This document shows positions 946 through 41,452 of a DNA stretch of 42,165 nucleotides, piece by piece (the first letter of the stretch is position 1; every line of letters begins with the position of its first letter). The position numbers were made by a program, and so were the translations under genes. The DNA is from an uncultured Candidatus Saccharibacteria bacterium (GTDB lineage Bacteria; Patescibacteriota; Saccharimonadia; Saccharimonadales; Saccharimonadaceae). The notes under the pieces are model-generated. The model ran no database searches. It had not been told where the DNA came from and saw only the letters and a list, made by a program, of their open reading frames with translations. The stretch is taken from contig CAZVUR010000001.1 of NCBI GenBank assembly GCA_964629385.1, positions 1 through 42,165 of the forward strand, in the 5' to 3' direction.

Positions 946-1012
946 TTTCTTCAGGGGTGGATTTTAATAGAGTAATTCGCTATAATTGCTCATGCACTTT
1001 ACTTCATAGTAT

Positions 1013-1087
1013 TGGGGTGTCGCCAAGTGGTAAGGCACATGGTTTTGGTCCATGCATTCGGGGGTTCGAATCCCTCCACCCCAGCCA
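1013..1087 (+). tRNA. tRNA-Gln (anticodon UUG), CCA encoded
   Basis: Hand-folded cloverleaf: acceptor TGGGGTG/CACCCCA with U1:A72, G73-CCA, anticodon loop TTTTGGT, T-loop GGTTCGAATCC. Near-identical in outline to E. coli tRNA-Gln. Confidence 0.9.
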
Positions 1088-1108
1088 TGAGTCTTCGAAT
1101 AGACAGAT

Positions 1109-1145
1109 GCAGAGGTGAACACTTCGTTCACCTCTGTTATTTTTG
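1109..1145 (+). terminator. Intrinsic terminator after tRNA-Gln
   Basis: Hairpin GCAGAGGTGAAC-acttc-GTTCACCTCTG followed by TTATTTTT. Confidence 0.6.
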
Positions 1146-1963
1146 TGCAATCAGGGGTTCCAGAAACAATATCTGCGTAAGTTGGTGCTTTGTTAAATAT
1201 TAGCCCAAAATACTTCGCTTGTAGCACCGGATTACAGTGGTGAAGTAGTAGTTCATCCAGGTGTTCCAGAAAATATCTGACTCGTTGCATAATTTCCTCC
1301 ATATTGTTAGGTTTCTGTGGTTTTTGTACCTTTCTCTCGTCTTCGAGTTGTCTGATTTCAACTTCCAGTTTTGCAATATCCTCCTCCATATACTTGATTG
1401 CTGTTTCTGAGTTTAAGAACTTTATCTTATCGACTGATTGACGGATTTGACCGTACAGCTCAGTAAGGCGTAAATCTATGGCTACCGCAGTCGCATGTTC
1501 GGCTAGAAGTTGTTTATCAAAAGCCGTGCCGACTGCGCTCATGAGTGCATCAATGTAATCATCCGAGATGCGCAGATTCTTCACAAAGTTCTCAATCGTC
1601 GCGTCAAACTCCTTCTTTGTTTTGCGGAAATAGTGACCTCGATGATCGCAGTGATAAGCAGGATAGTAACCGCCGTGACGGCCGCGCGAGGCACTACCAT
1701 AAAGCGGTTTTTCGCACTCAGGACACATCACGATGCGCTTGTAAGGGAACTCCGAATTTTTTACGCCCTTATTAAGGAGATGTTCCGGTATCTTACGTCT
1801 GGTGATTGTAATTTCACTTCCACTCTCCGTAATTACAAACTTGTCTCGATTAGCTTTGTTCCATATCGATACAGAGATGAGGCCATCAAATTGGCAACGG
1901 ACTGGTTTGCCCTGCGTCCATTTCTCGGGATTAATGCCAGCGTACACAGGATTCTCAAAAGGC

Positions 1964-4526: not shown

Positions 4527-4537
4527 GGAGCTAACCC

Positions 4538-5488
4538 ATGCATAACCACGACGAACACGAACATCATCACCATCATCATAATACTGACACTGCTGATATT
4601 CCTGCCGACCGTATGGCCGTCTGTCCAGTAACAGGCGACGCAATCGATACAGCAGAAGCTGAAAAGCTTGGACATTTCAGGGACGTGGACGGCCAGCGAA
4701 TGTATTTGTGCTGCGATACATGTGTACAGCTGTTCGATAAAAATCCTGAGCAGTACGTAGATCATCATCTTGGCCACGAACATCACCGGCATATTCCGAC
4801 AACAGGCACACTTCGCTTGAAGGAAAAAGAACACCTGACAGATAATGTTTGGGCGTTTCGTTTCACTACCGACCAGCCGCTATCGTGGACACCGGGTCAA
4901 TTCATTCGTATTGAAATTCCTCATGACAACCCTGACGGTGAAGGCACTAAACGATGGTTCACTATCTCATCAACGCCACATGATGGCTTTATCCAAATCA
5001 CGACTCGTGTGACCGATACTTCGTTTAAGCGAGCATTAGCTGCTCTCGAAGTTGGCGAAAAAGTACAGCTCATCGAGCAGCCAGATGGCGATTTTGTCTG
5101 GAAAGAGAGCGATAAGCCGTTAATATTCGTCGCAGGAGGTATCGGGATTACACCATTTTACAGCATGCTGAGGGCGCAAGGTCATAGCAGGCTACCGGTA
5201 TCTGCTACGCTTATCTACAATGGACGAACAGAGGATTTACCATTTAAGACAGAGTTTGAAGAAGCAAGTAAGCGTCATCCGGAGTTTACCGTGCATTATA
5301 TTATCGGTGAGCCAGTTAGCATCGAAAAGCTGACTGAAATTGTACCAGCCATCAACACATCACAAGTTTATATTTCAGGCCCCGAATCAATGGTTGAGAC
5401 ACTCGGCAAACAGTTAGAAGACAATGGGTTGGCTAGCAATAATCTCCATCAAGATTTCTTTCCTCATTACAACGAAGCGAATTACTAG
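4538..5488 (+). CDS. His-rich/YHS metal-binding domain fused to a ferredoxin-NADP reductase-like flavoprotein
   Basis: N-terminal HEHHHHHH and a YHS-like CPVTGD...YLCCDTCVQLF. C-terminal RWFTISS (RxYS-like FAD motif) and GGIGITP (NAD(P) motif). Confidence 0.7.
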   Translation: MHNHDEHEHHHHHHNTDTADIPADRMAVCPVTGDAIDTAEAEKLGHFRDVDGQRMYLCCDTCVQLFDKNPEQYVDHHLGHEHHRHIPTTGTLRLKEKEHLTDNVWAFRFTTDQPLSWTPGQFIRIEIPHDNPDGEGTKRWFTISSTPHDGFIQITTRVTDTSFKRALAALEVGEKVQLIEQPDGDFVWKESDKPLIFVAGGIGITPFYSMLRAQGHSRLPVSATLIYNGRTEDLPFKTEFEEASKRHPEFTVHYIIGEPVSIEKLTEIVPAINTSQVYISGPESMVETLGKQLEDNGLASNNLHQDFFPHYNEANY

Positions 5489-8467: not shown

Positions 8468-8497
8468 GTTCGAAACACGTCCACTAGCCCCATACCA
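8468..8497 (+). repeat. tRNA-3'-end-like core repeat, copy 0 (diverged)
   Basis: GTTCGAAACACGTCCACTAGCCCCATACCA. Compare the tRNA-Gln 3' end GTTCGAATCCCTCCACCCCAGCCA and the other core copies. Confidence 0.6.
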
Positions 8498-8500
8498 TTA

Positions 8501-8532
8501 TTGACAAATAATACAACTTATGCTAATATAAT
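8501..8532 (+). promoter_or_regulatory. Near-consensus sigma70 promoter P1 driving GC-rich cassette 1
   Basis: TTGACA (8501-8506), 17 nt, TAATAT (8524-8529) with TG at 8521-8522. An alternative TATAAT lies at 8527-8532. Confidence 0.65.
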
Positions 8533-8595
8533 ATTGATGTCCTAGCTTTGGAATCCGAGATTTCTCCACTCGACAAGAGGAGGCGAGGAGTTAAC

Positions 8596-9039
8596 ATGAA
8601 CACGCAGACCCTGGTCGAGTTCGACCAGAGCCAGGCCCAGACCTACAACGCGCTCTACGTCGTGAAGCAGGCCGTTCTCGTTCCCGTCCCGGACGGCATC
8701 GAGACGGTCATCAACGCGGAGTGGGGCGAGGAGCAGAAGTTCGTCGGTGCCTGGTACGGCATCTACGTCGACGGCGCGATCGTCTACGGCTCCGCCAAGA
8801 AGGAGTTCGACGACAGCCACGGCAAGACCGACGAGCTCGAGAACGGGTACTTCAAGGACACGCCCATCAGCGCGTACCAGTACCACGGCCCGACCGCACG
8901 AGTCCAGACCGTCCTCGCGGACGGCACCGTCGAGACCGGGAACACCATCTCGGACGGCGACTGGCTCGTGAAGTGGCCGGCCGGCGAGGTCGGAGTCCTG
9001 AAGGACGACAACTTCCGCAAGCGCTACCAGGTCAACTGA
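8596..9039 (+). CDS. GC-rich foreign ORF 1a, hypothetical protein (147 aa)
   Basis: ATG at 8596 lies 5 nt after GAGGAG. G/C-dominated third codon positions. The C-terminal DGDWLVKWPAGEVGVL is weakly reminiscent of small phage-type PGDYG-like proteins (unverified). Confidence 0.7.
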   Translation: MNTQTLVEFDQSQAQTYNALYVVKQAVLVPVPDGIETVINAEWGEEQKFVGAWYGIYVDGAIVYGSAKKEFDDSHGKTDELENGYFKDTPISAYQYHGPTARVQTVLADGTVETGNTISDGDWLVKWPAGEVGVLKDDNFRKRYQVN

Positions 9040-9044
9040 TCCAC

Positions 9045-9185
9045 ATGAGGCGCAGGCTGAGGAGGATCAAGCACGGGATCTTCGGACACCCCCGCGAGGA
9101 CATGATCTTCGGCGACATGGTCGAAGGCAACACCTGCACGTCGTGTGGGTGGAACTTCAAGCGGGCCGACATCACCGTGGGCTGA
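9045..9185 (+). CDS. GC-rich foreign small ORF 1b (46 aa, CxxC)
   Basis: ATG lies 5 nt after the ORF 1a stop. Same G/C-rich third-position bias. Sequence MRRRLRRIKHGIFGHPREDMIFGDMVEGNTCTSCGWNFKRADITVG. Below the 60-aa track cutoff as a separate ORF. Confidence 0.5.
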   Translation: MRRRLRRIKHGIFGHPREDMIFGDMVEGNTCTSCGWNFKRADITVG

Positions 9186-9194
9186 CAACAACCC

Positions 9195-9298
9195 CAACTA
9201 CACCCTCAGGAGAGGAGAGCACCCGAGCATGGGAGCCCCTCGAATGAGGGTGCTTCCATATCTAAATGTTCCTGAAACACATCCACCAGCCCCAGCCA
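9195..9298 (+). repeat. Cassette 3' module M, copy A (GC-rich hairpin half plus AT-rich linker plus core copy 1 at 9268-9298)
   Basis: CAACTACACCCTCA...GGGAGCCCCTCGAATGAGGGTGCTTCC-ATATCTAAAT-GTTCCTGAAACACATCCACCAGCCCCAGCCA. Aligns with copies at 10073 and 10627. Confidence 0.8.
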
Positions 9299-9363
9299 AG
9301 CTTAAGTATTATAAATAGGCCTTTTGGGTCTATTTTGTTATTATCGTTTTAGTGAAAAATTTA

Positions 9364-9495
9364 ATGAACAAAAAGATCGCAAATCAATCCAAGCGTAATA
9401 TTCTTTTCCTATACATATTATTTTTTGTTGGAGTTCTGATTTTTCTTTACGCAATTTTTGTGACATTGCGATACGTTCTTACTGAATCTTGGTAG
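9364..9495 (+). CDS. Small hydrophobic peptide (43 aa), native AT-rich composition
   Basis: MNKKIANQSKRNILFLYILFFVGVLIFLYAIFVTLRYVLTESW. One TM helix. The stop lies 5 nt before core copy 2. No clear RBS was seen. Confidence 0.35.
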   Translation: MNKKIANQSKRNILFLYILFFVGVLIFLYAIFVTLRYVLTESW

Positions 9496-9500
9496 TATTC

Positions 9501-9530
9501 TTCCTGAAACACATCCACTAGCCCCAGCCA
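9501..9530 (+). repeat. tRNA-3'-end-like core repeat, copy 2
   Basis: TTCCTGAAACACATCCACTAGCCCCAGCCA. It is followed by AAGACGCTTATGGTTTAAAT, which matches the trailer after copy 5 (10923-10941). Confidence 0.8.
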
Positions 9531-9578
9531 AGACGCTTATGGTTTAAATACTTCATTCGGAAGTCTATTTGTTTATGC

Positions 9579-9608
9579 TTGCAATTCCTTATTATTAAAC
9601 GGTAATCT
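9579..9608 (+). promoter_or_regulatory. Sigma70-like promoter P2 driving GC-rich cassette 2
   Basis: TTGCAA (9579-9584), 18 nt, TAATCT (9603-9608). The composition jump at ~9617 coincides with the predicted +1. Confidence 0.5.
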
Positions 9609-9645
9609 ATATTTACACGTTCCACACCGAGCTAAGGAGAGTGCG

Positions 9646-10089
9646 ATGGACGTGAGTATCAAACCAGCAGATAAGCAGGCGCGTGAGGCAGTCATCAAGG
9701 CGCGCGAAGACAAGGAGGCTGCTCGGGTTGCGCGCAAAGAGAAGCGCAAGAAGCGGAAGGCCGAGAAGCGAGACCCGGTCGTTGCCAAACGGCTCAGGCG
9801 GCGGATCGAGAAAGAAGTTCTCGCTGATCTTCTCACCGAGAAGCGGTGCTACCTCAATGCTCAGCCTTCGACCGGCCAGTATGTGATCGACACGCGAATT
9901 CGCTACGGCTGGACGCTGAAGCGGAAGTGGCGTTACGACAAAGACACCGTCGAGCGAATCTTCCTGGAAGTGCTCGCAAGTCACAACGGTTTCGAGCACA
10001 AGGCCGACTACCGTTGTCAGGGCCCGTGGTGGTGTGTCCGAATCGATGTTCAGTACACCCTGCTGGACCACTCAAGTACACCCTCATGA
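9646..10089 (+). CDS. GC-rich foreign ORF 2, hypothetical (147 aa): Lys/Arg/Glu-rich N-terminal half, Trp/Cys-containing C-terminal domain
   Basis: ATG lies 6 nt after AAGGAGAG. G/C-rich third positions. The last codons and the TGA lie inside module M copy B. Confidence 0.7.
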   Translation: MDVSIKPADKQAREAVIKAREDKEAARVARKEKRKKRKAEKRDPVVAKRLRRRIEKEVLADLLTEKRCYLNAQPSTGQYVIDTRIRYGWTLKRKWRYDKDTVERIFLEVLASHNGFEHKADYRCQGPWWCVRIDVQYTLLDHSSTPS

Positions 10090-10172
10090 GAGGAGACGCG
10101 ACCAAGTTGGGAGCCCCTCGAATGAGGGTGCTTCCATATCTAAATGTTCCTGAAACACATCCACTATCCCCA
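10073..10172 (+). repeat. Cassette 3' module M, copy B (core copy 3 at 10146-10172, truncated before GCCA)
   Basis: Identical to copy A over GGGAGCCCCTCGAATGAGGGTGCTTCCATATCTAAATGTTCCTGAAACACATCCAC. Runs directly into promoter P3. Confidence 0.8.
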
Positions 10173-10188
10173 ATTGTGGGTTAGATGA

Positions 10189-10217
10189 TTGACATAATAT
10201 TATTTATTTGTTATAAT
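10189..10217 (+). promoter_or_regulatory. Consensus sigma70 promoter P3 driving GC-rich cassette 3
   Basis: TTGACA (10189-10194), 17 nt, TATAAT (10212-10217) with TG at 10209-10210. Confidence 0.75.
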
Positions 10218-10267
10218 ATATTTAAGACGTGACTTTCACGTCCGAACCGAGTGAGAAAGGCATTCAG

Positions 10268-10615
10268 ATGCCGAAGTACGCGTTCAACAGCAAGAAGATT
10301 GTCGACCTCGTCGACGAGGACGAGGACTTGGTCCGGATCCTGGACCAGAAGACGGTTCGGGCTGACAACGTCCAGATCAAGGGCTACCCGACCAAGATGG
10401 ACGGCCATCTCTACCCCGTCAACTTCGTGCTCACCACTTCGAGCTACTACTACGAGGTCTCCATCTACCTGGAGACCGCCGAGATCCAGAAGTGCGACAT
10501 CTCCAGCTCCAGCGTGATCGAGTCCGACGTGTTCACTGCGCTGGACGACTTCACCGAGAAGCTGATGGCAATCCTCGAGGAGGTCGAGTCCGCCGAGAAG
10601 ATCGCCGCCGTCTGA
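10268..10615 (+). CDS. GC-rich foreign ORF 3, acidic hypothetical protein (115 aa)
   Basis: ATG at 10268 lies after GAGAAAGG. 19 of the first 20 codons end in G/C (hand count). The track ORF begins at an upstream GTG (10229) that lacks an RBS. Confidence 0.7.
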   Translation: MPKYAFNSKKIVDLVDEDEDLVRILDQKTVRADNVQIKGYPTKMDGHLYPVNFVLTTSSYYYEVSIYLETAEIQKCDISSSSVIESDVFTALDDFTEKLMAILEEVESAEKIAAV

Positions 10616-10626
10616 ATCAGCTCGCT

Positions 10627-10733
10627 CAACTACACCCTCATGAAAGGACAAGCGCCTGCAACAATGGAGCTCCTCGATTGAGGGTGCTTCCATTTGTAAA
10701 TTCTTCCTGAAACACATCCACTAACCCCAGCCA
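10627..10733 (+). repeat. Cassette 3' module M, copy C (core copy 4 at 10704-10733)
   Basis: CAACTACACCCTCATGAAAGGA...GGAGCTCCTCGATTGAGGGTGCTTCC-ATTTGTAAATTC-TTCCTGAAACACATCCACTAACCCCAGCCA. The hairpin arms are preserved through C-to-T (G:U) changes. Confidence 0.8.
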
Positions 10734-10734
10734 T

Positions 10735-10768
10735 AGAAAAAGACTGAGCATCTGCTCGGTCTTTTTCT
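10735..10768. terminator. Strong bidirectional-looking hairpin terminator
   Basis: AGAAAAAGACTGAGC-atct-GCTCGGTCTTTTTCT, a ~15 bp stem flanked by an A-run and a T-run. Confidence 0.65.
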
Positions 10769-10769
10769 A

Positions 10770-10904
10770 TAACTCGGGCCGGGACTACGAGCCCCCGATG
10801 CTTTTGCAAAGCAAAAGTCGGGGAGTTCGGCGTAGCGCAGCGATGATAAGAAAGCACCGAAGGTATTTTCTTATCAAGCAAGCGGAGGAGGCCTCATGGC
10901 AGAT
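10770..10904 (+). other. GC-rich structured non-coding segment abutting the tRNA-Gln 3'-end repeat (probable element-side arm of an att junction)
   Basis: No credible ORF. Hairpins CCCCGA..GCTTTTGC-aaa-GCAAAAG..TCGGGG and GATAAGAAA-12 nt-TTTCTTATC. Confidence 0.4.
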
Positions 10905-10922
10905 ATCCCTCCACCCCAGCCA
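10905..10922 (+). repeat. Exact 18-nt direct repeat of the tRNA-Gln 3' end (core copy 5, putative attR)
   Basis: ATCCCTCCACCCCAGCCA is identical to 1070-1087. Confidence 0.85.
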
Positions 10923-10936
10923 AGATGCTTATGTTT

Positions 10937-10962
10937 AAAATGACGAGAAATCGTCATTTTTT
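10937..10962 (+). terminator. Intrinsic terminator, likely the displaced original tRNA trailer terminator
   Basis: AAAATGACGA-gaaa-TCGTCATTTT followed by TT. Confidence 0.6.
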
Positions 10963-10971
10963 ATTGCTAAA

Positions 10972-11388
10972 ATGATAAGTATGAAATCAGTCGCTAAGCT
11001 TTTAATCAAGAATGGTAATGAGTTTTTAATGATGTACAGGAGTGATCATCCAACCTTTGGTATTGACCCTGATCTACCTGGCGGAACAGTGGAAGGAAGC
11101 GAGACCGTACTTCAAACCATGCTGAGAGAAGTCTACGAGGAGATCGGTGTAGTAGTTGAATCAAGTAAAGCTAGTGAAATATTCTCAGGTAACGACTATT
11201 CGGCACATGGGACTTACTATTCTCTGTTTATTACAGAGGTCGAGGACAAACCAGAGATACGCATGAGCTGGGAGCACTCATCGTATGAGTGGCTCAAGGA
11301 GTCGGAGTTTATAGAAAAGGCGGCTAGCGCAAAAGATACCTATATGCACATGGTTAGTGAGGTTCTAGCGTCGTATTCAATGTCATAA
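10972..11388 (+). CDS. NUDIX hydrolase
   Basis: Nudix box GGTVEGSETVLQTMLREVYEEIGV. Native composition. The start may be the ATG at 10981. Confidence 0.8.
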   Translation: MISMKSVAKLLIKNGNEFLMMYRSDHPTFGIDPDLPGGTVEGSETVLQTMLREVYEEIGVVVESSKASEIFSGNDYSAHGTYYSLFITEVEDKPEIRMSWEHSSYEWLKESEFIEKAASAKDTYMHMVSEVLASYSMS

Positions 11389-11390
11389 TA

Positions 11391-11420
11391 TTCCTGAAAC
11401 ACATCCACTAGTTCCAGCCA
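11391..11420 (+). repeat. tRNA-3'-end-like core repeat, copy 6
   Basis: TTCCTGAAACACATCCACTAGTTCCAGCCA begins 2 nt after the NUDIX stop codon. Confidence 0.75.
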
Positions 11421-20355: not shown

Positions 20356-23300
20356 ATGGACTTTGAGACTCGCTATAAAAAATTGAACGCACGTCAAAAG
20401 CAGGCGGTTGACACGATCGACGGGCCGTTAATGGTGGTCGCAGGTCCTGGCACAGGCAAAACAGAGCTTCTTAGCATGCGCGCTGCCAATATTCTCAAAA
20501 GTACCGATACCGCACCCGAAAACATATTATGCTTAACATTTACCGAAAGTGGTGCCACAGCTATGCGCCAGCGACTAAGCGAGATTATTGGCGCCGATGC
20601 TTATAAAGTCGCTATCCATACCTTTCACAGTTTTGGTAGTGAAATCATCAATCAAAACGGTGAATATTTTTACCAAGGGGCAAATTTTCGGCCAGCTTCC
20701 GACTTACATGCTTACGAATTGCTCCGGTCGATTTTTGACACCCTTGATTTTTCGAACCCGCTGGCCGGCAGGATGAACGACGAATATACCCACCTAAGCG
20801 ATACGCTGACTGTCATATCAGAGCTTAAAAAAAGCGGTTTGACGAACGAAGAATTATTACAAGTACTTGATTCCAACGAAAGTGTGCTTGATATGGTGGA
20901 ACGTGATATCGCCGGTGTATTTTCGTCTCGGGTGTCATCCAAAACCGCCGCCCAGCTGTCGCCAATCGCCACACGACTCGCTAGCATGCCTACCCATGCC
21001 ATGCCGCCGGGAATCGCGCCACTGGCGAACGTGTTGGCACTCAGTATTGCCCATGCGGTTGACGACGCTGCCGACAGCGACTCCACCAAGCCTATTACTA
21101 CCTGGAAAAATCGTTATCTCGAAAAAAACGAAAAAGGCGAGCTGGTGTTCAAAGATCGACGACGAACAGCCAAACTGCGTGCCTTGAGCTTTATTTACTA
21201 CCAATACTTGGTTGGCATGCAGGAATCTGAGCTGTACGACTTTGACGACATGGTGCTTCGTGTCGTTCACGCCATGGAGGTATTTCCGGACTTACGTTTC
21301 AACCTGCAAGAAAAATATTTGTATATCATGGTTGACGAGTTCCAAGATACAAACCTAGCTCAGGCCCGCATACTGCATAATCTTACGGCTACGCCAACTG
21401 GTGATACGCCAAATATCATGGTAGTGGGCGACGACGACCAAGCAATCTATAGTTTCCAGGGCGCCGAAATTGGCAATATATTGAATTTTCGCGATCGGTA
21501 CGAGGATTCTACGATTATCACACTTACCGACAACTATCGTTCAGCAGAGGCAATACTTACGAAGGCCAGCTCGGTGATTCGACAGGGAAATGAGCGACTC
21601 GAGCGCTACTTAGAAGAAGTTGATAAAACGCTTACCGCTCATCATAGCAGTAAACGTGCAGATGTGCGATTAACCGAATATCAGCACGTAGAGGATGAAA
21701 GGTACGGTATAGCAGCGGCCATCAAAGCACAGCTTGAAGCCGGTGTTGATCCAAGCTCAATCGCAGTATTGGCCCGGCGCCACCATGAGCTCGTATCGCT
21801 TCTTCCGTATTTTGCCGAACAAGGCATTACCGTCAATTACGAGCGCCGTGATAACGTACTTGATTCCCATGCTGTCGAGCAACTGCTGCTGCTTTCAAGA
21901 ATCGTATGTTACTTACATGGTGGTGATATAAGCCAAGCTGACGCCTTACTACCACAATTACTTAGCCACCCCGCCTGGGGCTACGATACACCAACCCTAT
22001 GGAAACTGAGCCTGGCAGCATACAAAAATCGGGGTAGCTGGCTTGAACAAATGGCGACCGTACCTGAGTTCATTCCACTGCATACCTGGCTGCTCGAAAC
22101 ATCTCGATTAGTAGCAACCGATCCAGCGGAGCACCTGATTGATGTGTTAACTGGCGTACCAGACGAGACATCTAACGCAGCCTACACCTCACCGTTGTAT
22201 GACTATTTCTTCGGCGGCGACAATCATAAGAATAAGCTCGATGATTACATCGTACATCTTGAAGCGCTACGGAGCATCCGGGCTGCGCTGCGTGAATATC
22301 GCCCAGGCGAACGGTTACTATTAAGCGATTTCATAGGGTTCATTGACCTCCATACGCATGTTGGCCAAGCAATTACCAGTCTGCGGGTACGTTCCGACAC
22401 CATGCCTGCCGCCATTAATTTACTTACGGCGCATAAGTCAAAAGGGCTCGAATACGACCACGTGTACGTAGTAGGAGCGATTGATTCATCGTGGGGCGAG
22501 CAGGTTCGTAGCCGTTCGCGCCTGATTGGGTATCCGGATAACCTTCCTATTCGCCCAAGCGGCGACTCGCTCGATGAGCGGTTACGGTTGTTCTTCGTGG
22601 CCATGACCAGAGCTCGCACCACGCTCTCAATCAGCTATTCGCTTACCGATGCAAATGGCAAAAACACGCTGCCCGCAAGTTTTTTGGTGAACGAGCAGTG
22701 GCAACCAATAAAGGCTATTACGCCAAACGGCGTACCGCATCTAGCTAAGCAGCTACAGCAAGAATGGTATAGCCCATATGTGGCGCTAGAGCAACCACAT
22801 ATGAAAGATTTGTTAGCCCATACGCTAGAATCATATAAGCTCAGTGTGACACACCTCACGTCGTTTTTGGATGTCACACGCGGCGGCCCGCAATATTTCC
22901 TGCTGAATAACTTGTTACGTTTTCCTAAAAGCAAACACCCGAGTGCCCAGTACGGTTCAGCCATTCACGAGGCCTTGCAACGGGCACACCTGCATGTTGC
23001 CGCCACCGGAATGAAAAAGCCACTCGAAGACATTTTGCAGGATTTTGAGCAAATCCTTGGTAAATACGTCATGAATGAACACGACTACAAAATATATTTA
23101 CAGCGCGGTACTACCAGTCTCAGCACATTTTTAGCCGCCCAGTACGAATCTTTTAGCGAGCATCAAAAAGTTGAGCTTAACTTTGCTAACCAACAAAGCA
23201 GGGTGGGCGACGCCGTATTGACCGGGTCGTTAGACCTTGTAGACATGGACGATAAGGCAAAAACAATGATTGTCACCGATTATAAAACCGGCGCGCCATC

Positions 23301-23649
23301 AAGCAAGTGGCAGGGCAAGACTGATAGCGAAAAACTAAAACTGCACAAGTACCGCCAACAACTATTATTCTATAAACTTATGTGCGAGAACTCCCGTGAT
23401 TATTCAAGCTACACTGTAACAAGTGGGGTTCTGCAATTTGTTGAGCCGAGTCCTAGTGGCGACATCCACGCACTTAGCCTGGATCTCGACTCAAGCGAGC
23501 TTGATCGTATGAGTAAACTCATCAATGCGGTTTGGCAAAAAATTATGAATTGCGATTTTCCTGACACGAGCGAATACGATGCCAGCTATAAGGGCGTTTT
23601 GGCATTCGAAGAAGACTTACTAAACGACTACGACGGCAAGTCTGACTAG
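20356..23649 (+). CDS. UvrD/PcrA/AddA-type helicase with a C-terminal PD-(D/E)xK nuclease domain
   Basis: GPGTGKT, DEFQDTN, VGDDDQAIYSFQGA, NYRS, and a C-terminal LDLVD...VTDYKTG nuclease motif. Confidence 0.85.
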   Translation: MDFETRYKKLNARQKQAVDTIDGPLMVVAGPGTGKTELLSMRAANILKSTDTAPENILCLTFTESGATAMRQRLSEIIGADAYKVAIHTFHSFGSEIINQNGEYFYQGANFRPASDLHAYELLRSIFDTLDFSNPLAGRMNDEYTHLSDTLTVISELKKSGLTNEELLQVLDSNESVLDMVERDIAGVFSSRVSSKTAAQLSPIATRLASMPTHAMPPGIAPLANVLALSIAHAVDDAADSDSTKPITTWKNRYLEKNEKGELVFKDRRRTAKLRALSFIYYQYLVGMQESELYDFDDMVLRVVHAMEVFPDLRFNLQEKYLYIMVDEFQDTNLAQARILHNLTATPTGDTPNIMVVGDDDQAIYSFQGAEIGNILNFRDRYEDSTIITLTDNYRSAEAILTKASSVIRQGNERLERYLEEVDKTLTAHHSSKRADVRLTEYQHVEDERYGIAAAIKAQLEAGVDPSSIAVLARRHHELVSLLPYFAEQGITVNYERRDNVLDSHAVEQLLLLSRIVCYLHGGDISQADALLPQLLSHPAWGYDTPTLWKLSLAAYKNRGSWLEQMATVPEFIPLHTWLLETSRLVATDPAEHLIDVLTGVPDETSNAAYTSPLYDYFFGGDNHKNKLDDYIVHLEALRSIRAALREYRPGERLLLSDFIGFIDLHTHVGQAITSLRVRSDTMPAAINLLTAHKSKGLEYDHVYVVGAIDSSWGEQVRSRSRLIGYPDNLPIRPSGDSLDERLRLFFVAMTRARTTLSISYSLTDANGKNTLPASFLVNEQWQPIKAITPNGVPHLAKQLQQEWYSPYVALEQPHMKDLLAHTLESYKLSVTHLTSFLDVTRGGPQYFLLNNLLRFPKSKHPSAQYGSAIHEALQRAHLHVAATGMKKPLEDILQDFEQILGKYVMNEHDYKIYLQRGTTSLSTFLAAQYESFSEHQKVELNFANQQSRVGDAVLTGSLDLVDMDDKAKTMIVTDYKTGAPSSKWQGKTDSEKLKLHKYRQQLLFYKLMCENSRDYSSYTVTSGVLQFVEPSPSGDIHALSLDLDSSELDRMSKLINAVWQKIMNCDFPDTSEYDASYKGVLAFEEDLLNDYDGKSD

Positions 23650-23652
23650 CTA

Positions 23653-23681
23653 TTGACACATTGTTTATTTAGCGGTAAAAT
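23653..23681 (+). promoter_or_regulatory. Sigma70 promoter P4 driving GC-rich unit 4
   Basis: TTGACA (23653-23658), 17 nt, TAAAAT (23676-23681). It starts 4 nt after the helicase stop codon. Confidence 0.7.
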
Positions 23682-23772
23682 ACTAGTGATTTTGAGAGTT
23701 GAGGCTCGTATTCTGTGCTGTACAATTTGAGGTAAAGCGTAGTATACGCGCCTCCTGTCAAAATCGAACTTT

Positions 23773-24316
23773 GACAGGATGGTGCCTTAGTGCGAACGGG
23801 CAGGGATCCGAGGACTCGTAACATTGTTCTCGCAGAAGATTCATTCTCTGTCCGTTCGACCAAACCTCCGGGCGTGGTGGGGCCCGAGACCCATTGCGCC
23901 CGGAGCCAAGTGCCCAGGCGGGCACGGTGCAAAACGAGGAGGGAGCAGCCGTCACACGCTGACAATTCTCGATGGAGGAACACCGTGTCCGCCTGTGGCC
24001 CATGCGAATGGCTACATGGCAGTGCTCCTTGTATCCGGGACTTCCGGAGCAAGCGTTCAATATACGACACCTTGAGAGGAGGTGATCGCATGGCAACCAC
24101 CGAGGAGACCAGGCAGGCCATCATGGCCGTCTCCAACGGCCAGGCCAGCAGGGAGCAGCAGGAGATCGCAAGGCGCGCGGCTCAGCAGGCTGGCTCCATG
24201 GGCAACAGTGCCCGGGAGGCCTTCAAGGGCAAGAAGTGAGCCAGCGAGGGCGATCATCTTCGCAGTGGGGGCGGGCTTACCCAGCCGCCCCCACCCGAGA
24301 CTGGTACCATCCTGTC
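23773..24316 (+). other. GC-rich cargo of unit 4, enclosed by a 14-bp long-range helix
   Basis: GACAGGATGGTGCC (23773-23786) is complementary to GGTACCATCCTGTC (24303-24316) with one G:U. It contains a ~300-nt structured leader plus a small ORF. Confidence 0.6.
24090..24239 (+). CDS. GC-rich foreign small ORF 4 (49 aa)
   Basis: ATG lies 5-6 nt after GAGAGGAGGTG. Sequence MATTEETRQAIMAVSNGQASREQQEIARRAAQQAGSMGNSAREAFKGKK with G/C-rich third positions. The in-frame upstream stretch from 23790 looks non-coding. Confidence 0.55.
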   Translation: MATTEETRQAIMAVSNGQASREQQEIARRAAQQAGSMGNSAREAFKGKK

Positions 24317-24365
24317 CGTCTCACATTACACATGAATTATTCGTGTGCAGCGTGAGACGTTTTTA
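24317..24365 (+). terminator. Intrinsic terminator of unit 4
   Basis: CGTCTCAC...GTGAGACG followed by TTTTT. The left arm GTCTCACATT is shared with the unit 5 terminator. Confidence 0.7.
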
Positions 24366-24394
24366 TTGACGATTCAAACTAAAAGTGATAAAAT
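24366..24394 (+). promoter_or_regulatory. Sigma70 promoter P5 driving GC-rich unit 5
   Basis: TTGACG (24366-24371), 17 nt, TAAAAT (24389-24394) with TG at 24386-24387. Confidence 0.7.
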
Positions 24395-24650
24395 CTATTT
24401 TACTTGGTCGAGTAGGCAACGAACATATCGAGTGATATGTTTTGAACGCGGTTTGTTCGTTGTCTATTCCTAAGTGTTTTTTAACAGGAATAGCGTACAA
24501 GAATTCACCGGGGTATCCCCGTTGCCTTGGTGAATGGGGTATCATTCTTCGCAGCGGCTTACGCAGTCTGCTCCGATAGTGGTCTGCAATGGCTTCTAGA
24601 GTGGAGAACGATACAGGGTGCTGAGTCCGGCTCGGCAAAGCACCCACCCG

Positions 24651-24723
24651 GGGGCGTTGGCGCAGATGGTAGCGCGCTCACCTAATACGTGAGAGGTCGC
24701 AGGTTCGAGCCCTGTGCGTCCCA
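24651..24723 (+). tRNA. GC-rich tRNA with anticodon AAU (formally Ile), CC but not CCA encoded
   Basis: Hand-folded canonical cloverleaf: GGGGCGT/GCGTCCC acceptor (two G:U), U8, GCGC/GCGC D-stem with G18G19, CTCAC/GTGAG anticodon stem, loop CTAATAC, T-loop TTCGAGC, discriminator A. Confidence 0.7.
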
Positions 24724-24795
24724 CCGGAACAAGCAGGCCGCAAAAGGAGTCGGCCGTCGTGCTTTCCTCGCTCGGTATGCACACTTGTTCCATCC

Positions 24796-24834
24796 GGGAC
24801 CGGAGGCTTCGCACATACCGTTGCCTCCGGTCCC
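24796..24834 (+). other. 12-bp perfect GC hairpin downstream of the GC-rich tRNA (high-GC-style terminator or processing hairpin)
   Basis: GGGACCGGAGGC-15 nt-GCCTCCGGTCCC with no T-run. Confidence 0.5.
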
Positions 24835-24985
24835 GCCCCACCCAAAGCTTCTCATTTATCGGCGCCAACCACCTGTTTAGTGGCGCGACGATAACTAGGA
24901 GGGGAGACCCCGGGCCCTTCTCTGTTTGCCGCTGCGCGGGAACGGTCCGGGGAACTTCCCTTGCTCTAAGACGCTATTCCTGTGT

Positions 24986-25036
24986 CTCACATTGTTTAAG
25001 AGTATCTCGTAGACAATGTGAGGCGTTTTATTTTTG
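24986..25036 (+). terminator. Intrinsic terminator of unit 5
   Basis: CTCACATTGT-17 nt-ACAATGTGAG followed by GCGTTTTATTTTT. Confidence 0.7.
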
Positions 25037-25094
25037 TTCAAAATATGGTATTATGAAGTCTCGATACATCATAAAAAATCAAAAGGAGACTTAC

Positions 25095-25295
25095 ATGGAG
25101 ATAGTTAACCTTCCACGTGCTATTGACCCTGAAACAGGACTGCCAGAAGTTGTAGGTAATGGCCGTGTTGCCGTTATCAAGCCGGGTGAAATGGTAGTAT
25201 CGCGTGTTGTTGAACTACCTGAGCCATACACAGACGACGGTAAACCCGATATGTTAAGCAAGCTTGTTGCCACCGGCAGACTCCATAATAATTAG
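25095..25295 (+). CDS. Small hypothetical protein (66 aa), native composition
   Basis: ATG lies 6 nt after AAAGGAG. The long track ORF 24714-25295 is an artefactual upstream extension through GC-rich RNA-like sequence. Confidence 0.5.
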
Positions 25296-27596: not shown

Positions 27597-29187
<1,591 letters not shown>

Positions 29188-29191
<4 letters not shown>

Positions 29192-33936: not shown

Positions 33937-36837
33937 CTAATAAATTAGGAAGCCGGAACCAGTGCCACTCGTTGTTGCGGGTACCTGCAAAATAGGCCAA
34001 GGTGTGGGGTAAGTGGGGTTACCTTCGCCTGAAATCTGATAATAATCATTTTTACCCCAACAGTAGCCCCTGTTATCGGAGGCAATAGCACATGTGGTGT
34101 ACCTGCTTGCAGAAATACTCTTATACGTACCGCCTGCAGGCACGGCACCTTGGTTAACAAGTACGGCAGTACGACGCGTTGTTACCGTATTATCTCCAAG
34201 TTGGTTTACGTCATTTAAACCCCAACAATAGGCCTTATCTTCAGAACTGATTGTGCAGGTGTAGCTTATACCTAAAGTAATGCTTTTATAGGTGGCACCA
34301 ACAGGCATAGCACCACGCACAACGGCTACAGGTATGGTGCGTGTTGTGGTCGTGTTATCACCTAGCTGGCCGCTACCATTATTACCCCAACAATACGCTT
34401 TATCATTGGAACCAATAGCGCAGGTATGATTATTGCCAGTTGCGATGCTCTTGAAGGTCACGCCGGCGGGTATAGCGCCTTGCACAACTGCCACTGGGGC
34501 AGGATTAGTGTTTAAATAGGTAGTGTTGCCACCTTCGCCAAAGGTATTGTCGCCCCAGCAGTAGGCTTTGTTGTCGGAGCCAATTGCGCAGGTATTAATA
34601 CCGCCTGCAGAAATACTTTTGAAGGTTACACCGGCTGGCATGTCACCTTGGGCAACGGCTACAGGTGTCAGTTCTGGTGGCGCAAATATACTGCCATTAT
34701 TTCCTAGTTGTCCATTACTGTTATTACCCCAACAATAGGCTTTGTCGTTTGAGCCAATAGCGCAGGTATGACTACCCCCTGCAGAAATACTTTTGAATGT
34801 TACACCGGCTGGCATGGCACCTTGCGCAACGGCGGTAGGCGTAGGCTGGCTAGTGGTTGTGTTATCTCCCAGGACCCCGTAGCTGTTATATCCCCAGCAA
34901 TACGCTTTGTCGTTAGAGCCAATGCCGCAGGTATGATTACCGGTAGCAGACGTGCTAACTGACTTAAACGTCACGCCGGCCGGCATGGCGCCTTGCACAA
35001 CCGGGAATGGAGTGGCTGACGGACCTGAAACACCAGAGGTAGATATGCCGTTTCCAAGATAGCCGCCTTGATTACTACCCCAACAATAGGCTTTATTATC
35101 CGAAACTGTGGCACATGATTGAGTACTGCCCGCAGAAATACTAGTGAGCGTTACACTAGTTGGAATAACACCAGTAGGAACCGTAACTGGAACTGATCGA
35201 CTAGGCGTCATAGCACCATCGCCGAGCTGCGCGCTATCGTCTGCACCCCAGCAATAAATGTTAGAATCACTACCAAGAACGCAAGTATGGCTATAGCCAG
35301 CCTTAATGCTATCAAATGTTACTCCCGCGGGTATGCTTCCTTGGCTAGTAGCTACTGGAGTTAGGCGCTGCGTTTGAGTGCTGTCGCCTAGCTGCCCGTA
35401 AGTATTATCGCCCCAGCAATATAGCATGTTATTGGAGCCAATGCCGCAACTATGTAACTGGCCAGCCGCGATACCCTTAAAGGTAGAACCGGCTGGCATG
35501 GCACCTTGAGCAACTGCAACAGGAGTGAGGCGTTGGGTAGTCGTATTATCGCCCAGCTGCCCAGAAGAATTACTACCCCAGCAATAGGCTTTGTCGTTAG
35601 ATCCAATACCGCAGGTATGATACGAATTTGTGGTAATACTTTTGAAGGTAGTGCCGGCTGGCATGGCTCCTTGAGCGACCGCAACGGGGGTATAGGCCGT
35701 TCCAGTGCTATTATTTCCGAGCTGCCCATTACTGTTAAAACCCCAGCAGTAGGCTTTGTCGTTAGAGCCAATACCGCAGACATAGCCGTTTTCTGCAGCA
35801 GCTATACTTTTGAACGTAGAACCAATTGGCATGGCTCCCCTAGAAACAGCTACGGGTGTATAGCTGGCAGTTGTTGTATTATTACCAAACTGCGCATAGG
35901 TATTATCGCCCCAGCAATAGGCTTTGTCGTTTGAGCCAAGTGCGCAGGTAAAGCTGCTACCAACCGAGATACTTTTGAACGTTACACCGGCTGGGATGGC
36001 ACCTTGGGCGACAGCCACTGGCGTACTGCTGGTAGTAGTAGTGCCATCACCCAGCTGCCCAGAAGAATTACTACCCCAGCAATAGGCTTTGTTGTCGGAG
36101 CCAATAAGACAAGCATGTGAACCACCTATTGAAATGCTGCTAGCCGTTACGTCAGCTGGCATTGCGCCCCTAGAAACAGCAACAGGGATAAGCGATTTAG
36201 CTATGGTGTTGTCAAATTTAGCCGCACCCCAACAATAAACGTTATTTGTTAAATCGAGTGCACAAGTACCATAGTAACCTGCGCTTAATGACCCGGCTTT
36301 GAATGTCATCCAAGCCGAACTCGAACCCGAAATACTTATGCTAACTTTAACAGACGAATTCGTTTGCATTACCACGTCACCGCTCGTCGTTCGCACCTGC
36401 CGTACGATGCCTTGTGAATTAAAATCTGTCGGCGTGCCGCCGCTATCACTGACTATTCCAACACTAAACGCTGTTCTATAATTTCCACTCTTTAATACAT
36501 AGCATGCTACATCAGTGCTTGATGAAGGACAGCTGATGTTTTCAGTCCCCGTACAATCGGTGTTAGGTTTGAGGGGTTTTGCATCCGTCCATGTAATGCT
36601 TCCACCGTTCTTTTTCATACACGCATTAGCCATAGCAATTCCAGACTTAGCAGCGGAGCGGCCGATTTGGTCAACGTATTGGTTGCGAATACCAGCAGAG
36701 ATGGAGCTAACGCCAGTCAGGGCAGCGAGCAGTACGACCATCATGACGACGGAGGCAACAAGAACAGTGGGTAAAGCAAAGCCTTCTGACTTTGTTTTAC
36801 CCTTATAACGATGTGCTACTTGTCTTGTCCAACCCAT
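33937..36837 (-). CDS. Pilin-like (prepilin-type N-terminus) surface protein with ~14 RCC1-like beta-propeller repeats (966 aa)
   Basis: N-terminal KSEGFALPTVLVASVVMMVVLLAAL resembles a class III signal/minor pilin lacking E5. There are 14 YCWG motifs spaced ~52-56 aa apart (GSNDKAYCWGxNxxGQLG...TPVAV). Confidence 0.75.
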   Translation of the reverse strand: MGWTRQVAHRYKGKTKSEGFALPTVLVASVVMMVVLLAALTGVSSISAGIRNQYVDQIGRSAAKSGIAMANACMKKNGGSITWTDAKPLKPNTDCTGTENISCPSSSTDVACYVLKSGNYRTAFSVGIVSDSGGTPTDFNSQGIVRQVRTTSGDVVMQTNSSVKVSISISGSSSAWMTFKAGSLSAGYYGTCALDLTNNVYCWGAAKFDNTIAKSLIPVAVSRGAMPADVTASSISIGGSHACLIGSDNKAYCWGSNSSGQLGDGTTTTSSTPVAVAQGAIPAGVTFKSISVGSSFTCALGSNDKAYCWGDNTYAQFGNNTTTASYTPVAVSRGAMPIGSTFKSIAAAENGYVCGIGSNDKAYCWGFNSNGQLGNNSTGTAYTPVAVAQGAMPAGTTFKSITTNSYHTCGIGSNDKAYCWGSNSSGQLGDNTTTQRLTPVAVAQGAMPAGSTFKGIAAGQLHSCGIGSNNMLYCWGDNTYGQLGDSTQTQRLTPVATSQGSIPAGVTFDSIKAGYSHTCVLGSDSNIYCWGADDSAQLGDGAMTPSRSVPVTVPTGVIPTSVTLTSISAGSTQSCATVSDNKAYCWGSNQGGYLGNGISTSGVSGPSATPFPVVQGAMPAGVTFKSVSTSATGNHTCGIGSNDKAYCWGYNSYGVLGDNTTTSQPTPTAVAQGAMPAGVTFKSISAGGSHTCAIGSNDKAYCWGNNSNGQLGNNGSIFAPPELTPVAVAQGDMPAGVTFKSISAGGINTCAIGSDNKAYCWGDNTFGEGGNTTYLNTNPAPVAVVQGAIPAGVTFKSIATGNNHTCAIGSNDKAYCWGNNGSGQLGDNTTTTRTIPVAVVRGAMPVGATYKSITLGISYTCTISSEDKAYCWGLNDVNQLGDNTVTTRRTAVLVNQGAVPAGGTYKSISASRYTTCAIASDNRGYCWGKNDYYQISGEGNPTYPTPWPILQVPATTSGTGSGFLIY

Positions 36838-40749: not shown

Positions 40750-41001
40750 ATGAACCGCATCGTCAACGTCGCGACCGTCGTGGTCGGAGGCATCGTCGCC
40801 ATCAAGATCGCGAAGGAGGTCAAGGACTTCATCGTGTTCGACGCCGGCTCGACCGAGAACCGCCGCTACCGGAAGTTCTACAAGGAGATCTCCCGGGCGG
40901 CCAACAAGATGAAGAACGTGTCGGTGGAAGAGCTGATGGAGCTGCTGCGTGGTGAGGAGCTCACGCCCCAGGTGGCCGGCTCCGACCGCAACGCCATGTA
41001 G
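40750..41001 (+). CDS. GC-rich foreign ORF 6 (83 aa), N-terminal TM helix
   Basis: ATG lies 6 nt after AAGGGAG. Sequence MNRIVNVATVVVGGIVAIKIAKEV... with G/C-rich third positions. The upstream ATG at 40702 lies in a leader hairpin without an RBS. Confidence 0.65.
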   Translation: MNRIVNVATVVVGGIVAIKIAKEVKDFIVFDAGSTENRRYRKFYKEISRAANKMKNVSVEELMELLRGEELTPQVAGSDRNAM

Positions 41002-41114: not shown

Positions 41115-41127
41115 ATATAAAATATTG

Positions 41128-41156
41128 TTGACAGCATACATAGGACGCAGTATCAT
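41128..41156 (+). promoter_or_regulatory. Sigma70 promoter P7 driving unit 7
   Basis: TTGACA (41128-41133), 17 nt, TATCAT (41151-41156). Confidence 0.65.
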
Positions 41157-41162
41157 TACTCT

Positions 41163-41436
41163 TAATCTGTAACGGACTCTGGGAGCGCTCGGGTGCTTCA
41201 TATACCCCGGTATGGATGCCGAGAAATCGGTTCAAATACGACATTTTCTGACCACATACGACCCGGCGTCGTATCTCCGTCTCAGAATAGACAGAGCAGA
41301 ATCGTCGTTTAGGCAGGCTAGAGAGAGGAAGGCCGCGCGGTTTTCCTGCAAATACCATACGATGCCTGCCTAAGCCCCCGCGTTCCAGCCAGACCCCTCC
41401 AAAAGGTCCGGCTGGTGCGGGGGCTCGTCAATTTCT
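41163..41436 (+). ncRNA. Candidate structured non-coding RNA (unit 7), class unknown
   Basis: No ORF with an RBS. Stems include TTAGGCAGGC...GCCTGCCTAA and ACGAC-ccggc-GTCGT, with a terminal GCCCCCGC...GCGGGGGC hairpin. The 5' part resembles module M (GGGAGC..GGGTGCTTCATATA). Confidence 0.35.
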
Positions 41437-41452
41437 TGCTATACTTTATCTA

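Follow-up and report, generated by a model that had tools for sequence, protein, structure and literature searches.

A gene read as tRNA-Ile(AAU) in a Saccharibacterium is probably a tRNA-like module of a clamped, lineage-specific RNA unit next to dus

The normal reader of AUU codons in bacteria is a tRNA with the anticodon GAU, and a bacterial tRNA gene with the anticodon AAU raises the question of whether it decodes isoleucine codons at all, where it came from and what else it might do. Such a gene lies in the 42,165-nucleotide (nt) stretch analysed here (the window; contig CAZVUR010000001.1, positions 1 to 42,165, of assembly GCA_964629385.1, an uncultured Candidatus Saccharibacteria bacterium), inside a GC-rich transcription unit designated U5 (coordinates in Table 1). 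The evidence makes it quite probable that this 73-mer is a tRNA-like module of the unit. The fuller reading, in which the module belongs to a Saccharibacteria-specific structured RNA unit, is neither a decoding tRNA-Ile nor foreign, and acts by the mechanism set out below, is favoured with somewhat better than even confidence.

ARAGORN calls a tRNA-Gln(ttg) gene at 1013-1087 of the window and, as the only other tRNA, tRNA-Ile(aat) at 24651-24725, which upholds the AAU anticodon that a first-pass annotation of the DNA had read in a hand-folded cloverleaf. The full-length Rfam tRNA model (RF00005) matches 24651-24723 with 55.7 bits (E=1.8e-9, threshold 29), near the 61.4 bits of tRNA-Gln, a local Rfam search gives E=6.3e-11, and the cloverleaf is the minimum free energy (MFE) fold of the 73-mer. 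The acceptor stem GGGGCGU/GCGUCCC contains a G4.U69 pair and is followed by U8, the D arm (GCGC-AGAUGGUA-GCGC) has A14 and G18G19, the anticodon arm CUCAC-CUAAUAC-GUGAG presents C32, U33, A34-A35-U36, A37 and C38, the variable loop is AGGUC, and the T arm GCAGG-UUCGAGC-CCUGU carries G53-U54-U55-C56 and A58. The 7-bp acceptor stem, the D, anticodon and T arms and all tertiary nucleotides of the RF00005 fold are present, and the U8, G18G19, U33, A37 and T54-Psi55-C56 equivalents listed by the first-pass annotation can all be read directly. CCG follows the discriminator A73, and the gene thus lacks an encoded CCA.

The surroundings of the cloverleaf also agree largely with what had been proposed. 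The tRNA is GC-rich (64%, against 58% in tRNA-Gln at 1013) and embedded in a GC-rich unit that would be transcribed independently, flanked as it is by a predicted promoter and terminator; the 5' end of the predicted transcript is about 250 nt away and its 3' end about 310 nt. The GC-rich hairpin downstream of it is present and has no U tract, as described; its helix is one base pair longer than the 12 first given, and with 11 G-C and two A-U pairs it is not all-GC. The U5 transcript is predicted to be far more structured than shuffled controls (z=-13.7), and a long-range clamp helix that joins its two ends is part of the MFE fold. In an Rfam scan of 23600-25100, tRNA was the sole match at E<=5, with no Y RNA/YrlA, GOLLD or ROOL; none of the weak Rfam hits in the units was credible, and ARAGORN called no transfer-messenger RNA (tmRNA) in the window.

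The clamp is what connects U5 to a larger family. A search around the terminator motif GTCTCACA, followed by one for long-range complementarity, revealed one architecture in 17 units from different Saccharibacteria genomes (U marks units of the window, and L numbered loci compared with it, mostly from other Saccharibacteria). These units always lie between a gene for an AddA-like helicase and dus, on the same strand as dus, and are composed in order of a predicted sigma-70 promoter, an AT-rich leader hairpin, the clamp 5' strand, a cargo of 350-850 nt that is GC-rich in most units, and the clamp 3' strand, usually with a terminator starting (C)GTCTC directly 3' of it. The clamp is 12-15 bp long, its 5' strand usually starts with GACAGG, and its helix is perfect in every one of the 17 units despite differing sequences (examples are GACAGGATGGTGCC, GACAGGCACAGTGA, GACGGGAATGATGC, GGCAGAAACTATACT and GACAGAGATAGTGC). 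In a gap-free alignment of 12 distinct units, 97.6% of the cells are paired and 10 of the 14 pairs show double changes, a result equalled by none of 500 shuffles, and pairing falls to 28-46% when the register is slid. The inner 8 bp vary between genomes yet remain complementary, and G.U pairs occur on the transcribed strand. Because of these G.U pairs, the fixed locus and the absence of target-site duplications, the clamp is best understood as an RNA helix and not as a pair of transposon ends.

U5 occupies the same helicase-dus slot and carries both the clamp and the GTCTCACA terminator, which is common to most sibling units. It departs from the family in its last element: where most units end in a ribosome-binding site (RBS) block (CCTTYGAGAGGAGGTGA) and an open reading frame (ORF) of 47-54 aa, typically about 48, starting with ATG or TTG, U5 has an AGGAGG remnant with no start codon or ORF downstream. 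Full-text literature searches returned no description of such units, or of GC-rich cassettes, in Saccharibacteria. The pre-dus unit is a previously undescribed, lineage-specific and strongly covarying structured RNA/small-protein locus.

Modules resembling the U5 tRNA are found in the units of L019, L020, L024, L025, L235, L236-L239, L241-L243 and L244, and none was detected in U4, L021/L226, L229, L232/L044 or L234. In an alignment of eight modules, G10, C11, A14, G18/G19, U20, G52, G53, U54, U55, C56, A58, C61 and C62 are invariant, and pairing reaches 96.9% in the acceptor, D and T stems, where 10 of 16 pairs have changed in a compensatory way, among them all seven of the acceptor stem. The anticodon region cannot be aligned across the eight. 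The L241 module has an anticodon stem (CUCAC/GUGAG) identical to that of U5 but an 8-nt loop (GCACUAGA), L025 shows AAUGUAC, L019 has UAUGGGA, which keeps a UGG anticodon but with A33, and the arm of L235 has been replaced and is degenerate. In L020, L244 and L236-L239 it is drawn out into rods of 37-47 nt with covarying stems, capped by GGCUAACC or by GGCUAGCC, which is palindromic and makes loop-loop dimerisation conceivable. Moreover, not one of the eight modules called by ARAGORN encodes CCA, compared with 27 of the 27 ordinary tRNA genes that it calls in the Saccharibacteria loci. To judge from the alignment, selection maintains the body of the tRNA, meaning its elbow nucleotides and its acceptor, D and T stems, but leaves the anticodon arm free. 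Since the arm is spared, AAU is most probably an incidental state of an unconstrained loop and not a decoding adaptation. Seven of nine modules have a CUA(R) motif in their apical loop; because the modules are homologous, this recurrence is not independent evidence of function.

C1-G72, A73 and a UGG anticodon are hallmarks of bacterial tRNA-Pro. Most modules have C1-G72 with A73, and UGG is kept in L019, and the modules are for these reasons probably derived from tRNA-Pro. The nearest ordinary tRNAs by identity are likewise tRNA-Pro genes, in a comparison set that is biased by the search pattern. The earlier suspicion that the identity elements of the U5 tRNA might not match its anticodon is upheld, its body being closest to these tRNA-Pro-type modules. 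U5 itself stands apart from most modules in its G1-C72 pair and its fully canonical 7-nt loop. Its short-arm features, along with sequence motifs, link it to L241, whose stem is the same, and to the L025 module at 9508 (CCUAAU). A metagenome pattern scan for further members mostly retrieved unrelated gut-bacterial tRNA-Pro(GGG) genes (120 of 126 matches). The pre-dus slot of the Saccharibacteria metagenome-assembled genome (MAG) represented by L025 holds an array of at least five tRNA-like genes (9265-9925) with non-canonical loops (AAUGUAC, CCAACGG; no U33), one insertion of about 70 nt, one call of 'tRNA-Val(AAC)' and no encoded CCA. In the viral contig IMG/VR_UViG_3300004463_000103 (L220), a tRNA-like gene at 1016-1104 with an extended anticodon arm and an encoded CCA lies immediately upstream of an HNH endonuclease gene and a terminase region. 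This one viral match at 85% identity was rejected as a relative, since it belongs to an unrelated high-GC phage.

The unit directly upstream, U4, helps to explain why U5 carries no protein. U4 is a tandem sibling of U5, with its own promoter, clamp and terminator and a 49-aa ORF, and the U5 promoter begins directly 3' of the T-run of the U4 terminator. The U4 ORF belongs to a small-protein family of about 25 members, Saccharibacteria throughout, in which each member with retrieved context occupies the helicase-dus slot and the differences between members are biased to third codon positions. Structure prediction gives a three-helix bundle with high confidence (pLDDT 92), and no relative in sequence or fold was found in Pfam, PHROGs, NCBIfam, a PDB sequence search or Foldseek. 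The other parts of U5 resemble units of other genomes: its clamp ACAGGAATAGCGT is nearly identical to the clamp GACAGGAATAGCG of L244, its terminator is 77% identical to that of L244, its leader shares a block of about 40 nt with the L244 leader (local alignment z=6.7, 0 of 200 shuffles) and more weakly with the L237 leader (z=3.3), and its module has the same position within the unit as in L244 and L237. The U4 ORF, in turn, has about 78% nucleotide identity to the ORFs of L244 and L237. To judge from these matches, a single L244/L237 unit corresponds to the front half of U5 plus the ORF of U4, which implies two tandem copies in the window organism, U5 being the apparent ORF-less tandem paralogue of U4. 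Of the duplicates, U4 would have retained the protein and no module, and U5 the leader block, module, clamp and terminator and no ORF. We infer that the ancestral cargo was a tRNA-derived module followed by the conserved RBS and the three-helix protein of about 48 aa (L019, L020, L235, L237, L244).

How such a unit might work is a separate and more tentative matter; the proposal that the tRNA body serves as a handle is possible but rather doubtful as yet. According to it, the clamp and terminator would protect the transcript ends, and the L-shaped body would be recognised by RNase P, RNase Z, the CCA-adding enzyme or a different protein that binds the elbow. Such factors would cut or mark the precursor, so that the flanking RNA is stabilised or delivered, and the module would thus be a processing, stability or protein-binding handle inside a clamped precursor whose product, in U5, would be purely RNA. 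In addition, a local hairpin of U5 (CTATTCCT/AGGAATAG) uses the same 5' strand as the clamp helix and hence competes with it, and analogous CCTGTC...GACAGG hairpins occur in U4, L244, L237 and L229, which suggests a co-transcriptional alternative or switch.

Several points weigh against this reading of U5. Its promoter, terminator and processing are predictions, and sequence identity alone fails to separate it from ordinary tRNA-Pro and tRNA-Val genes (73-78%). Its G1-C72 pair, compared with C1-G72 in most modules, allows for module replacement instead of direct descent, and a within-species test of constraint is impossible because all contigs carrying U5 are 100% identical. Furthermore, its anticodon arm is canonical (5-bp stem, 7-nt loop, U33 and A37), unlike that of every other module examined, which could mean that a decoding role has been regained. 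Among the isoleucine codons of the backbone AUU is the commonest (406 of 723), so that a decoder could be of some use, and a CCA-adding enzyme, if present, permits maturation without an encoded CCA.

These points lead to the best of the competing explanations, which is nevertheless unlikely, namely that U5 yields a working elongator tRNA-Ile(AAU) whose module regained a canonical loop and is excised, given CCA and charged by IleRS to read AUU, or AUU, AUC and AUA if A34 is deaminated. The cloverleaf and tertiary nucleotides, canonical throughout and scoring about as well as the genuine tRNA-Gln, fit this explanation, as do the 56% share of AUU among backbone isoleucine codons and the strong predicted promoter of its own upstream of a unit in which, with no ORF, RNA is the sole product. 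The identity set of IleRS comprises A35, U36, A37, A73, C29-G41, G34 or lysidine-34, A38, C4-G69 and U12-A23. U5 has the first five of these, but A34, C38, G4.U69 and G12-C23 in place of the others. It also departs from the ordinary decoding tRNAs of the lineage on two counts, the encoded CCA and the conservation of anticodon and U33 loop among orthologues: the anticodon is conserved in no homologous module, and even the nearest, L241, combines the same stem with an 8-nt loop. The GC-rich cassettes use ATC for 32 of their 34 isoleucine codons.

Deamination of A34 has its own difficulty. Bacterial TadA prefers a UACG motif, from which the UAAU context of U5 differs, and no tadA-like or other deaminase gene was found among the genes of the window. 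The first-pass annotation was right to call an Ile-type A34 anticodon unusual in bacteria. Known tRNAs with A34 include eukaryotic tRNA-Ile, in which AAU becomes IAU. Bacterial examples are tRNA-Arg(ACG) and the tRNA-Leu(AAG) of Lactobacillales (PMC13249217, PMC8266599), and unmodified A34 tRNAs exist (PMC11066159). U5 shares the wobble A with all of these and AAU with the eukaryotic tRNA-Ile, and differs in that its loop is unconstrained in the family. A more specific version, that a tRNA-Pro-derived mimic has been re-functionalised into an A34 tRNA-Ile(AAU) expressed from its own clamped precursor of about 630 nt, is improbable; if true, it would offer a rare natural instance of a tRNA reborn through the remoulding of its anticodon arm, and of a bacterial isoleucine decoder with wobble A or I.

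Comparably improbable is the possibility that the module is a tRNA mimic or decoy, its L-shaped body titrating or regulating a tRNA-binding protein without being processed; candidate partners would be the adjacent Dus, another modification enzyme, EF-Tu or a tRNA-targeting toxin of host or phage. A conserved elbow and acceptor with a free anticodon arm would suit a decoy, Saccharibacteria live attached to Actinobacteria (PMC10746230), and adjacency to dus is strict in all genomes examined. This adjacency may, however, be plain synteny and partly a matter of ascertainment, since many loci were retrieved via Dus. The recurrence of CUA(R) in the apical loops, including the palindromic GGCUAGCC, may equally reflect shared ancestry. 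No partner protein is identifiable from the window.

A decaying relic is less likely still. U5 would then be a degenerating duplicate of a U4-type unit, its tRNA part a functionless pseudogene and AAU noise, as might be read from the lost ORF with its AGGAGG remnant, the varying anticodons of the family and the missing CCA. The promoter, leader hairpin, perfect 13-bp clamp, terminator and every tRNA tertiary nucleotide are nevertheless intact, the tRNA body shows compensatory evolution across species whose Dus proteins have diverged by 22-40%, and the fold stands well apart from that of shuffled controls.

A foreign origin, by capture from an actinophage or a high-GC actinobacterial host, had been raised in the first-pass annotation and is already largely refuted, with very little probability left to it. 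It would account for a 64% GC tRNA in a 47% GC genome whose hosts are Actinobacteria (PMC10746230), and the best matches of the U5 tRNA alone in a phage collection of 50,697 records are indeed tRNAs of Mycobacterium and Gordonia phages. Such matches are about 72-82% identical, of mixed isotypes and restricted to the tRNA, amounting to generic tRNA similarity; 23600-25100 and 24480-24960 have no match in the collection, and a pattern scan of IMG/VR gave 0 matches. No phage or plasmid relative of U5 was found, actinobacterial genomes not having been searched with its sequence, and there is no integrase next to U5 among the window genes. Moreover, the unit, with its clamp, leader block and terminator, is native to Saccharibacteria, homologous units occupying the same slot of 17 or more other genomes, and other GC-rich cassette families are likewise restricted to Saccharibacteria and GC-rich in distant relatives too. 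Finally, that the inverted repeats are the DNA ends of a mobile cassette (a miniature inverted-repeat transposable element or an integron-like element) with the tRNA as cargo is just as remote: 12-15-bp inverted repeats do flank 350-850-bp segments of varying content, and repeat-bounded cassettes occur elsewhere in the window, but the location is fixed and syntenic in every genome, no target-site duplications, direct repeats flanking the arms, transposase or integrase were found, the inner base pairs covary, G.U pairs occur on the transcribed strand, the 3' arm adjoins a terminator and a local hairpin competes for the 5' arm.

Among known systems, a canonical bacterial elongator tRNA shares with the U5 module the cloverleaf, all tertiary-interaction nucleotides, the length of 73 nt and A73; U5 differs in lying about 250 nt inside a clamped transcript of about 630 nt, in lacking an encoded CCA and in having an anticodon that is not conserved among homologues. 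YrlA RNAs, which bind Rsr/Ro60, combine a tRNA-like domain with a terminal stem, and the units resemble YrlA and Y RNAs in the terminal stem formed from the 5' and 3' ends and in the internal tRNA-like domain. They differ from them in the closed acceptor stem, the complete cloverleaf, the much larger size and in mostly encoding a protein, and no Ro60/TROVE match was found among the window genes scanned against Pfam. GOLLD and ROOL are large ornate RNAs of several hundred nucleotides, lineage-restricted, often beside or containing tRNAs, and prophage-associated. The units are likewise several hundred nucleotides long, highly structured, lineage-restricted and tRNA-associated, but have no Rfam match, a fixed chromosomal locus and a cargo that varies between species. 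Bacterial tRNA-mRNA co-transcripts are also known, for example from the E. coli tufB operon. Outside bacteria, tRNA-like modules in long transcripts are processed by RNase P and RNase Z, as in MALAT1 mascRNA (PMC8457004) and Arabidopsis GUT15 (PMC6152437). By analogy, the unit would work most like these embedded modules and like the bacterial co-transcripts: a tRNA-shaped domain sits in a longer transcript, sibling modules adjoin an mRNA, and the anticodon arm is dispensable, being degenerate or irrelevant in relatives. In contrast to mascRNA and GUT15, the units are bacterial, from the Candidate Phyla Radiation (CPR), and have an end-to-end clamp helix and a conserved small ORF, and processing is here a proposal.

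Table 1. Positions of the U5 and U4 units and their parts, of sibling tRNA-like modules (numbered within their own loci) and of the high-GC3 small ORFs of the window.
Feature	Positions	Strand	Basis or remarks
U5 unit (whole)	24366-25036	+	After helicase (20356-23649) and U4, before orf66/dus (25095 onwards)
U5 predicted promoter	24366-24394	+	-35 TTGACG, 17-nt spacer with TG, -10 TAAAAT; 10/12 matches plus extended -10
5' leader hairpin of U5 transcript	24401-24476	+	MFE fold of 24401-25035; sibling units have equivalents
Local hairpin CTATTCCT/AGGAATAG	24464-24493 (24464-24471 with 24486-24493)	+	Read from sequence
Clamp helix, 5' strand (ACAGGAATAGCGT)	24484-24496	+	Perfect 13-bp complement of 24971-24983
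Conserved leader block (GCAGCGGCTTACGCAG...CTGCAA)	24550-24592	+	Alignment; common to L244/L237 units
GC-rich hairpin just 5' of module (GGGTGC...GCACCC)	24616-24645	+	Fold; L020 module preceded by equivalent
tRNA-like module	24651-24723	+	ARAGORN, Rfam, MFE fold, module alignment, stem covariation, CCA test
Hairpin domain closed by GGAACAAG/CTTGTTCC	24726-24791	+	Fold and sequence
GC-rich hairpin CGGGACCGGAGGC/GCCTCCGGTCCCG	24795-24835	+	Fold and sequence; 13 bp, 15-nt loop
AGGAGG, possible remnant of sibling units' RBS block	24897-24902	+	Sequence; where ORF should begin
Clamp helix, 3' strand (ACGCTATTCCTGT)	24971-24983	+	MFE fold, clamp covariation
Predicted intrinsic terminator GTCTCACATTGT...ACAATGTGAGGC and U-rich tail	24984-25036	+	Fold; GTCTCACA motif at 24984
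U4, tandem sibling unit	23653-24365	+	Promoter 23653-23681; terminator 24318-24364
U4 clamp	23773-23786 with 24303-24316	+	Long-range complementarity
U4 49-aa ORF	24090-24239	+	Small-protein family member
L019 module	896-971		76 nt
L235 module	2880-2960		39.3 Rfam bits
L020 module	178-286		Anticodon arm extended to rod
L244 module	2463-2565		Anticodon arm extended to rod
L236 module (same in L237)	4457-4564		Anticodon arm extended to rod
L241-L243 module	3037-3109		Downstream of small ORF
L024 module	9838-9908		3' of a different small ORF
High-GC3 small ORFs	8596-9185, 9646-10089, 10268-10615, 24090-24239, 40750-41001		GC3 0.70-0.95

The backbone around U5 is the chromosome of an uncultured Saccharibacterium (TM7). 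Its large ORFs encode, among others, an AddA-like UvrD/PD-(D/E)XK helicase, a DEAD-box helicase, a TrmA-like methyltransferase, Dus, an ABC-F protein and a copper ATPase, and they include the F-type ATP synthase operon, which is complete. A phage window was ruled out by these housekeeping genes and by the relatives, which are Saccharibacteria MAGs, the best relatives of Dus being Saccharibacteria/Patescibacteria MAGs with up to 78% identity. An engineered or synthetic construct, in which consensus promoters would drive high-GC inserts, was also considered; the sequence is natural, since identical copies are found in many independent metagenome assemblies and diverged homologues exist. Sources of the strain include the samples behind ERZ724528, SRR5676444-50 and SRR14234036. 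Six GC-rich islands (60-66% GC) interrupt the backbone of about 47% GC, and the GC content at third codon positions (GC3) of their ORFs is 0.70-0.95, compared with 0.32-0.51 in every backbone gene. Expression-linked codon bias was rejected as the cause, the ATP synthase and HSP20 genes having GC3 of only 0.32-0.49. Recent import from Actinobacteria or actinophages fails as an explanation of the U1 ORF family and of the small-protein family of U4, since both are restricted to Saccharibacteria and the U1 family keeps a GC3 of 0.70-0.84 in 47% GC relatives that share just 50-79% protein identity. Nor is there support here for the idea that U5 and the remaining cassettes of extreme GC3 are produced to be used inside a high-GC actinobacterial host. 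U1-U3 and U6 lack the clamp helix and so represent another type of cassette.

About seven copies of a motif of some 30 nt (TTCCTGAAACACATCCACTAGCCCCAGCCA), resembling the 3' end of tRNA-Gln (1070-1087), lie in 8472-11420, with copies at 8472, 9274, 9506, 10152, 10709 and 11396 and an exact copy of the tRNA-Gln 3' end at 10905-10922. They border U1-U3, three GC-rich cassettes that each have a consensus promoter of their own, and U1-U3 look like a cassette array at a tRNA-derived att site, although no integrase was recognised there. A role of this 3' repeat as an RNA structure or tRNA-like element is unsupported, the motif not being structured as RNA. An ORF of 327 aa without a Pfam match (964-1947, minus strand) overlaps tRNA-Gln (plus strand) in antisense. 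It lies at the border of an island of copper/DUF305 genes, which extends to the vicinity of the copied tRNA-Gln 3' end at 10905; these genes may be a genomic island inserted at tRNA-Gln. Elsewhere, 41116-41450 has a promoter-like TTGACA (at about 41130, by eye) followed by a GC-rich non-coding stretch of structured look with no Rfam match at the gathering threshold, and may be a further uncharacterised RNA. A 966-aa RCC1-type repeat protein with 165-nt tandem units is encoded directly upstream of the ATP synthase operon (33937-36837, minus strand), and an uncharacterised 73-aa ORF lies between atpG and atpD (28970-29191, minus strand). Between U5 and dus there is an uncharacterised 66-aa ORF (25095-25295, plus strand), and small ORFs of 51-104 aa, whose sequences were not compared, are found between unit and dus in L232, L234, L235, L237 and L240.

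The reading of U5 as a tRNA-like module bears on how these genomes are annotated. Automated pipelines are likely to label U5 tRNA-Ile(AAT), its relatives being called tRNA-Pro, Thr, Val, Ala, Cys or "undetermined", and such mis-calls would distort tRNA inventories and inferences of codon capacity for Saccharibacteria and other reduced-genome CPR bacteria. The analysis also exposes a compositional class, small genes and RNAs at GC3 0.7-0.95 in genomes of about 47% GC, that is unexplained. It brings to light, too, an undescribed unit that combines a clamp and a domain derived from a tRNA with a three-helix protein of 48 aa. The phylum is episymbiotic and very little is known of its RNA biology, and since Saccharibacteria are now genetically manipulable, by natural transformation (PMC10187176), the unit is a concrete experimental target.

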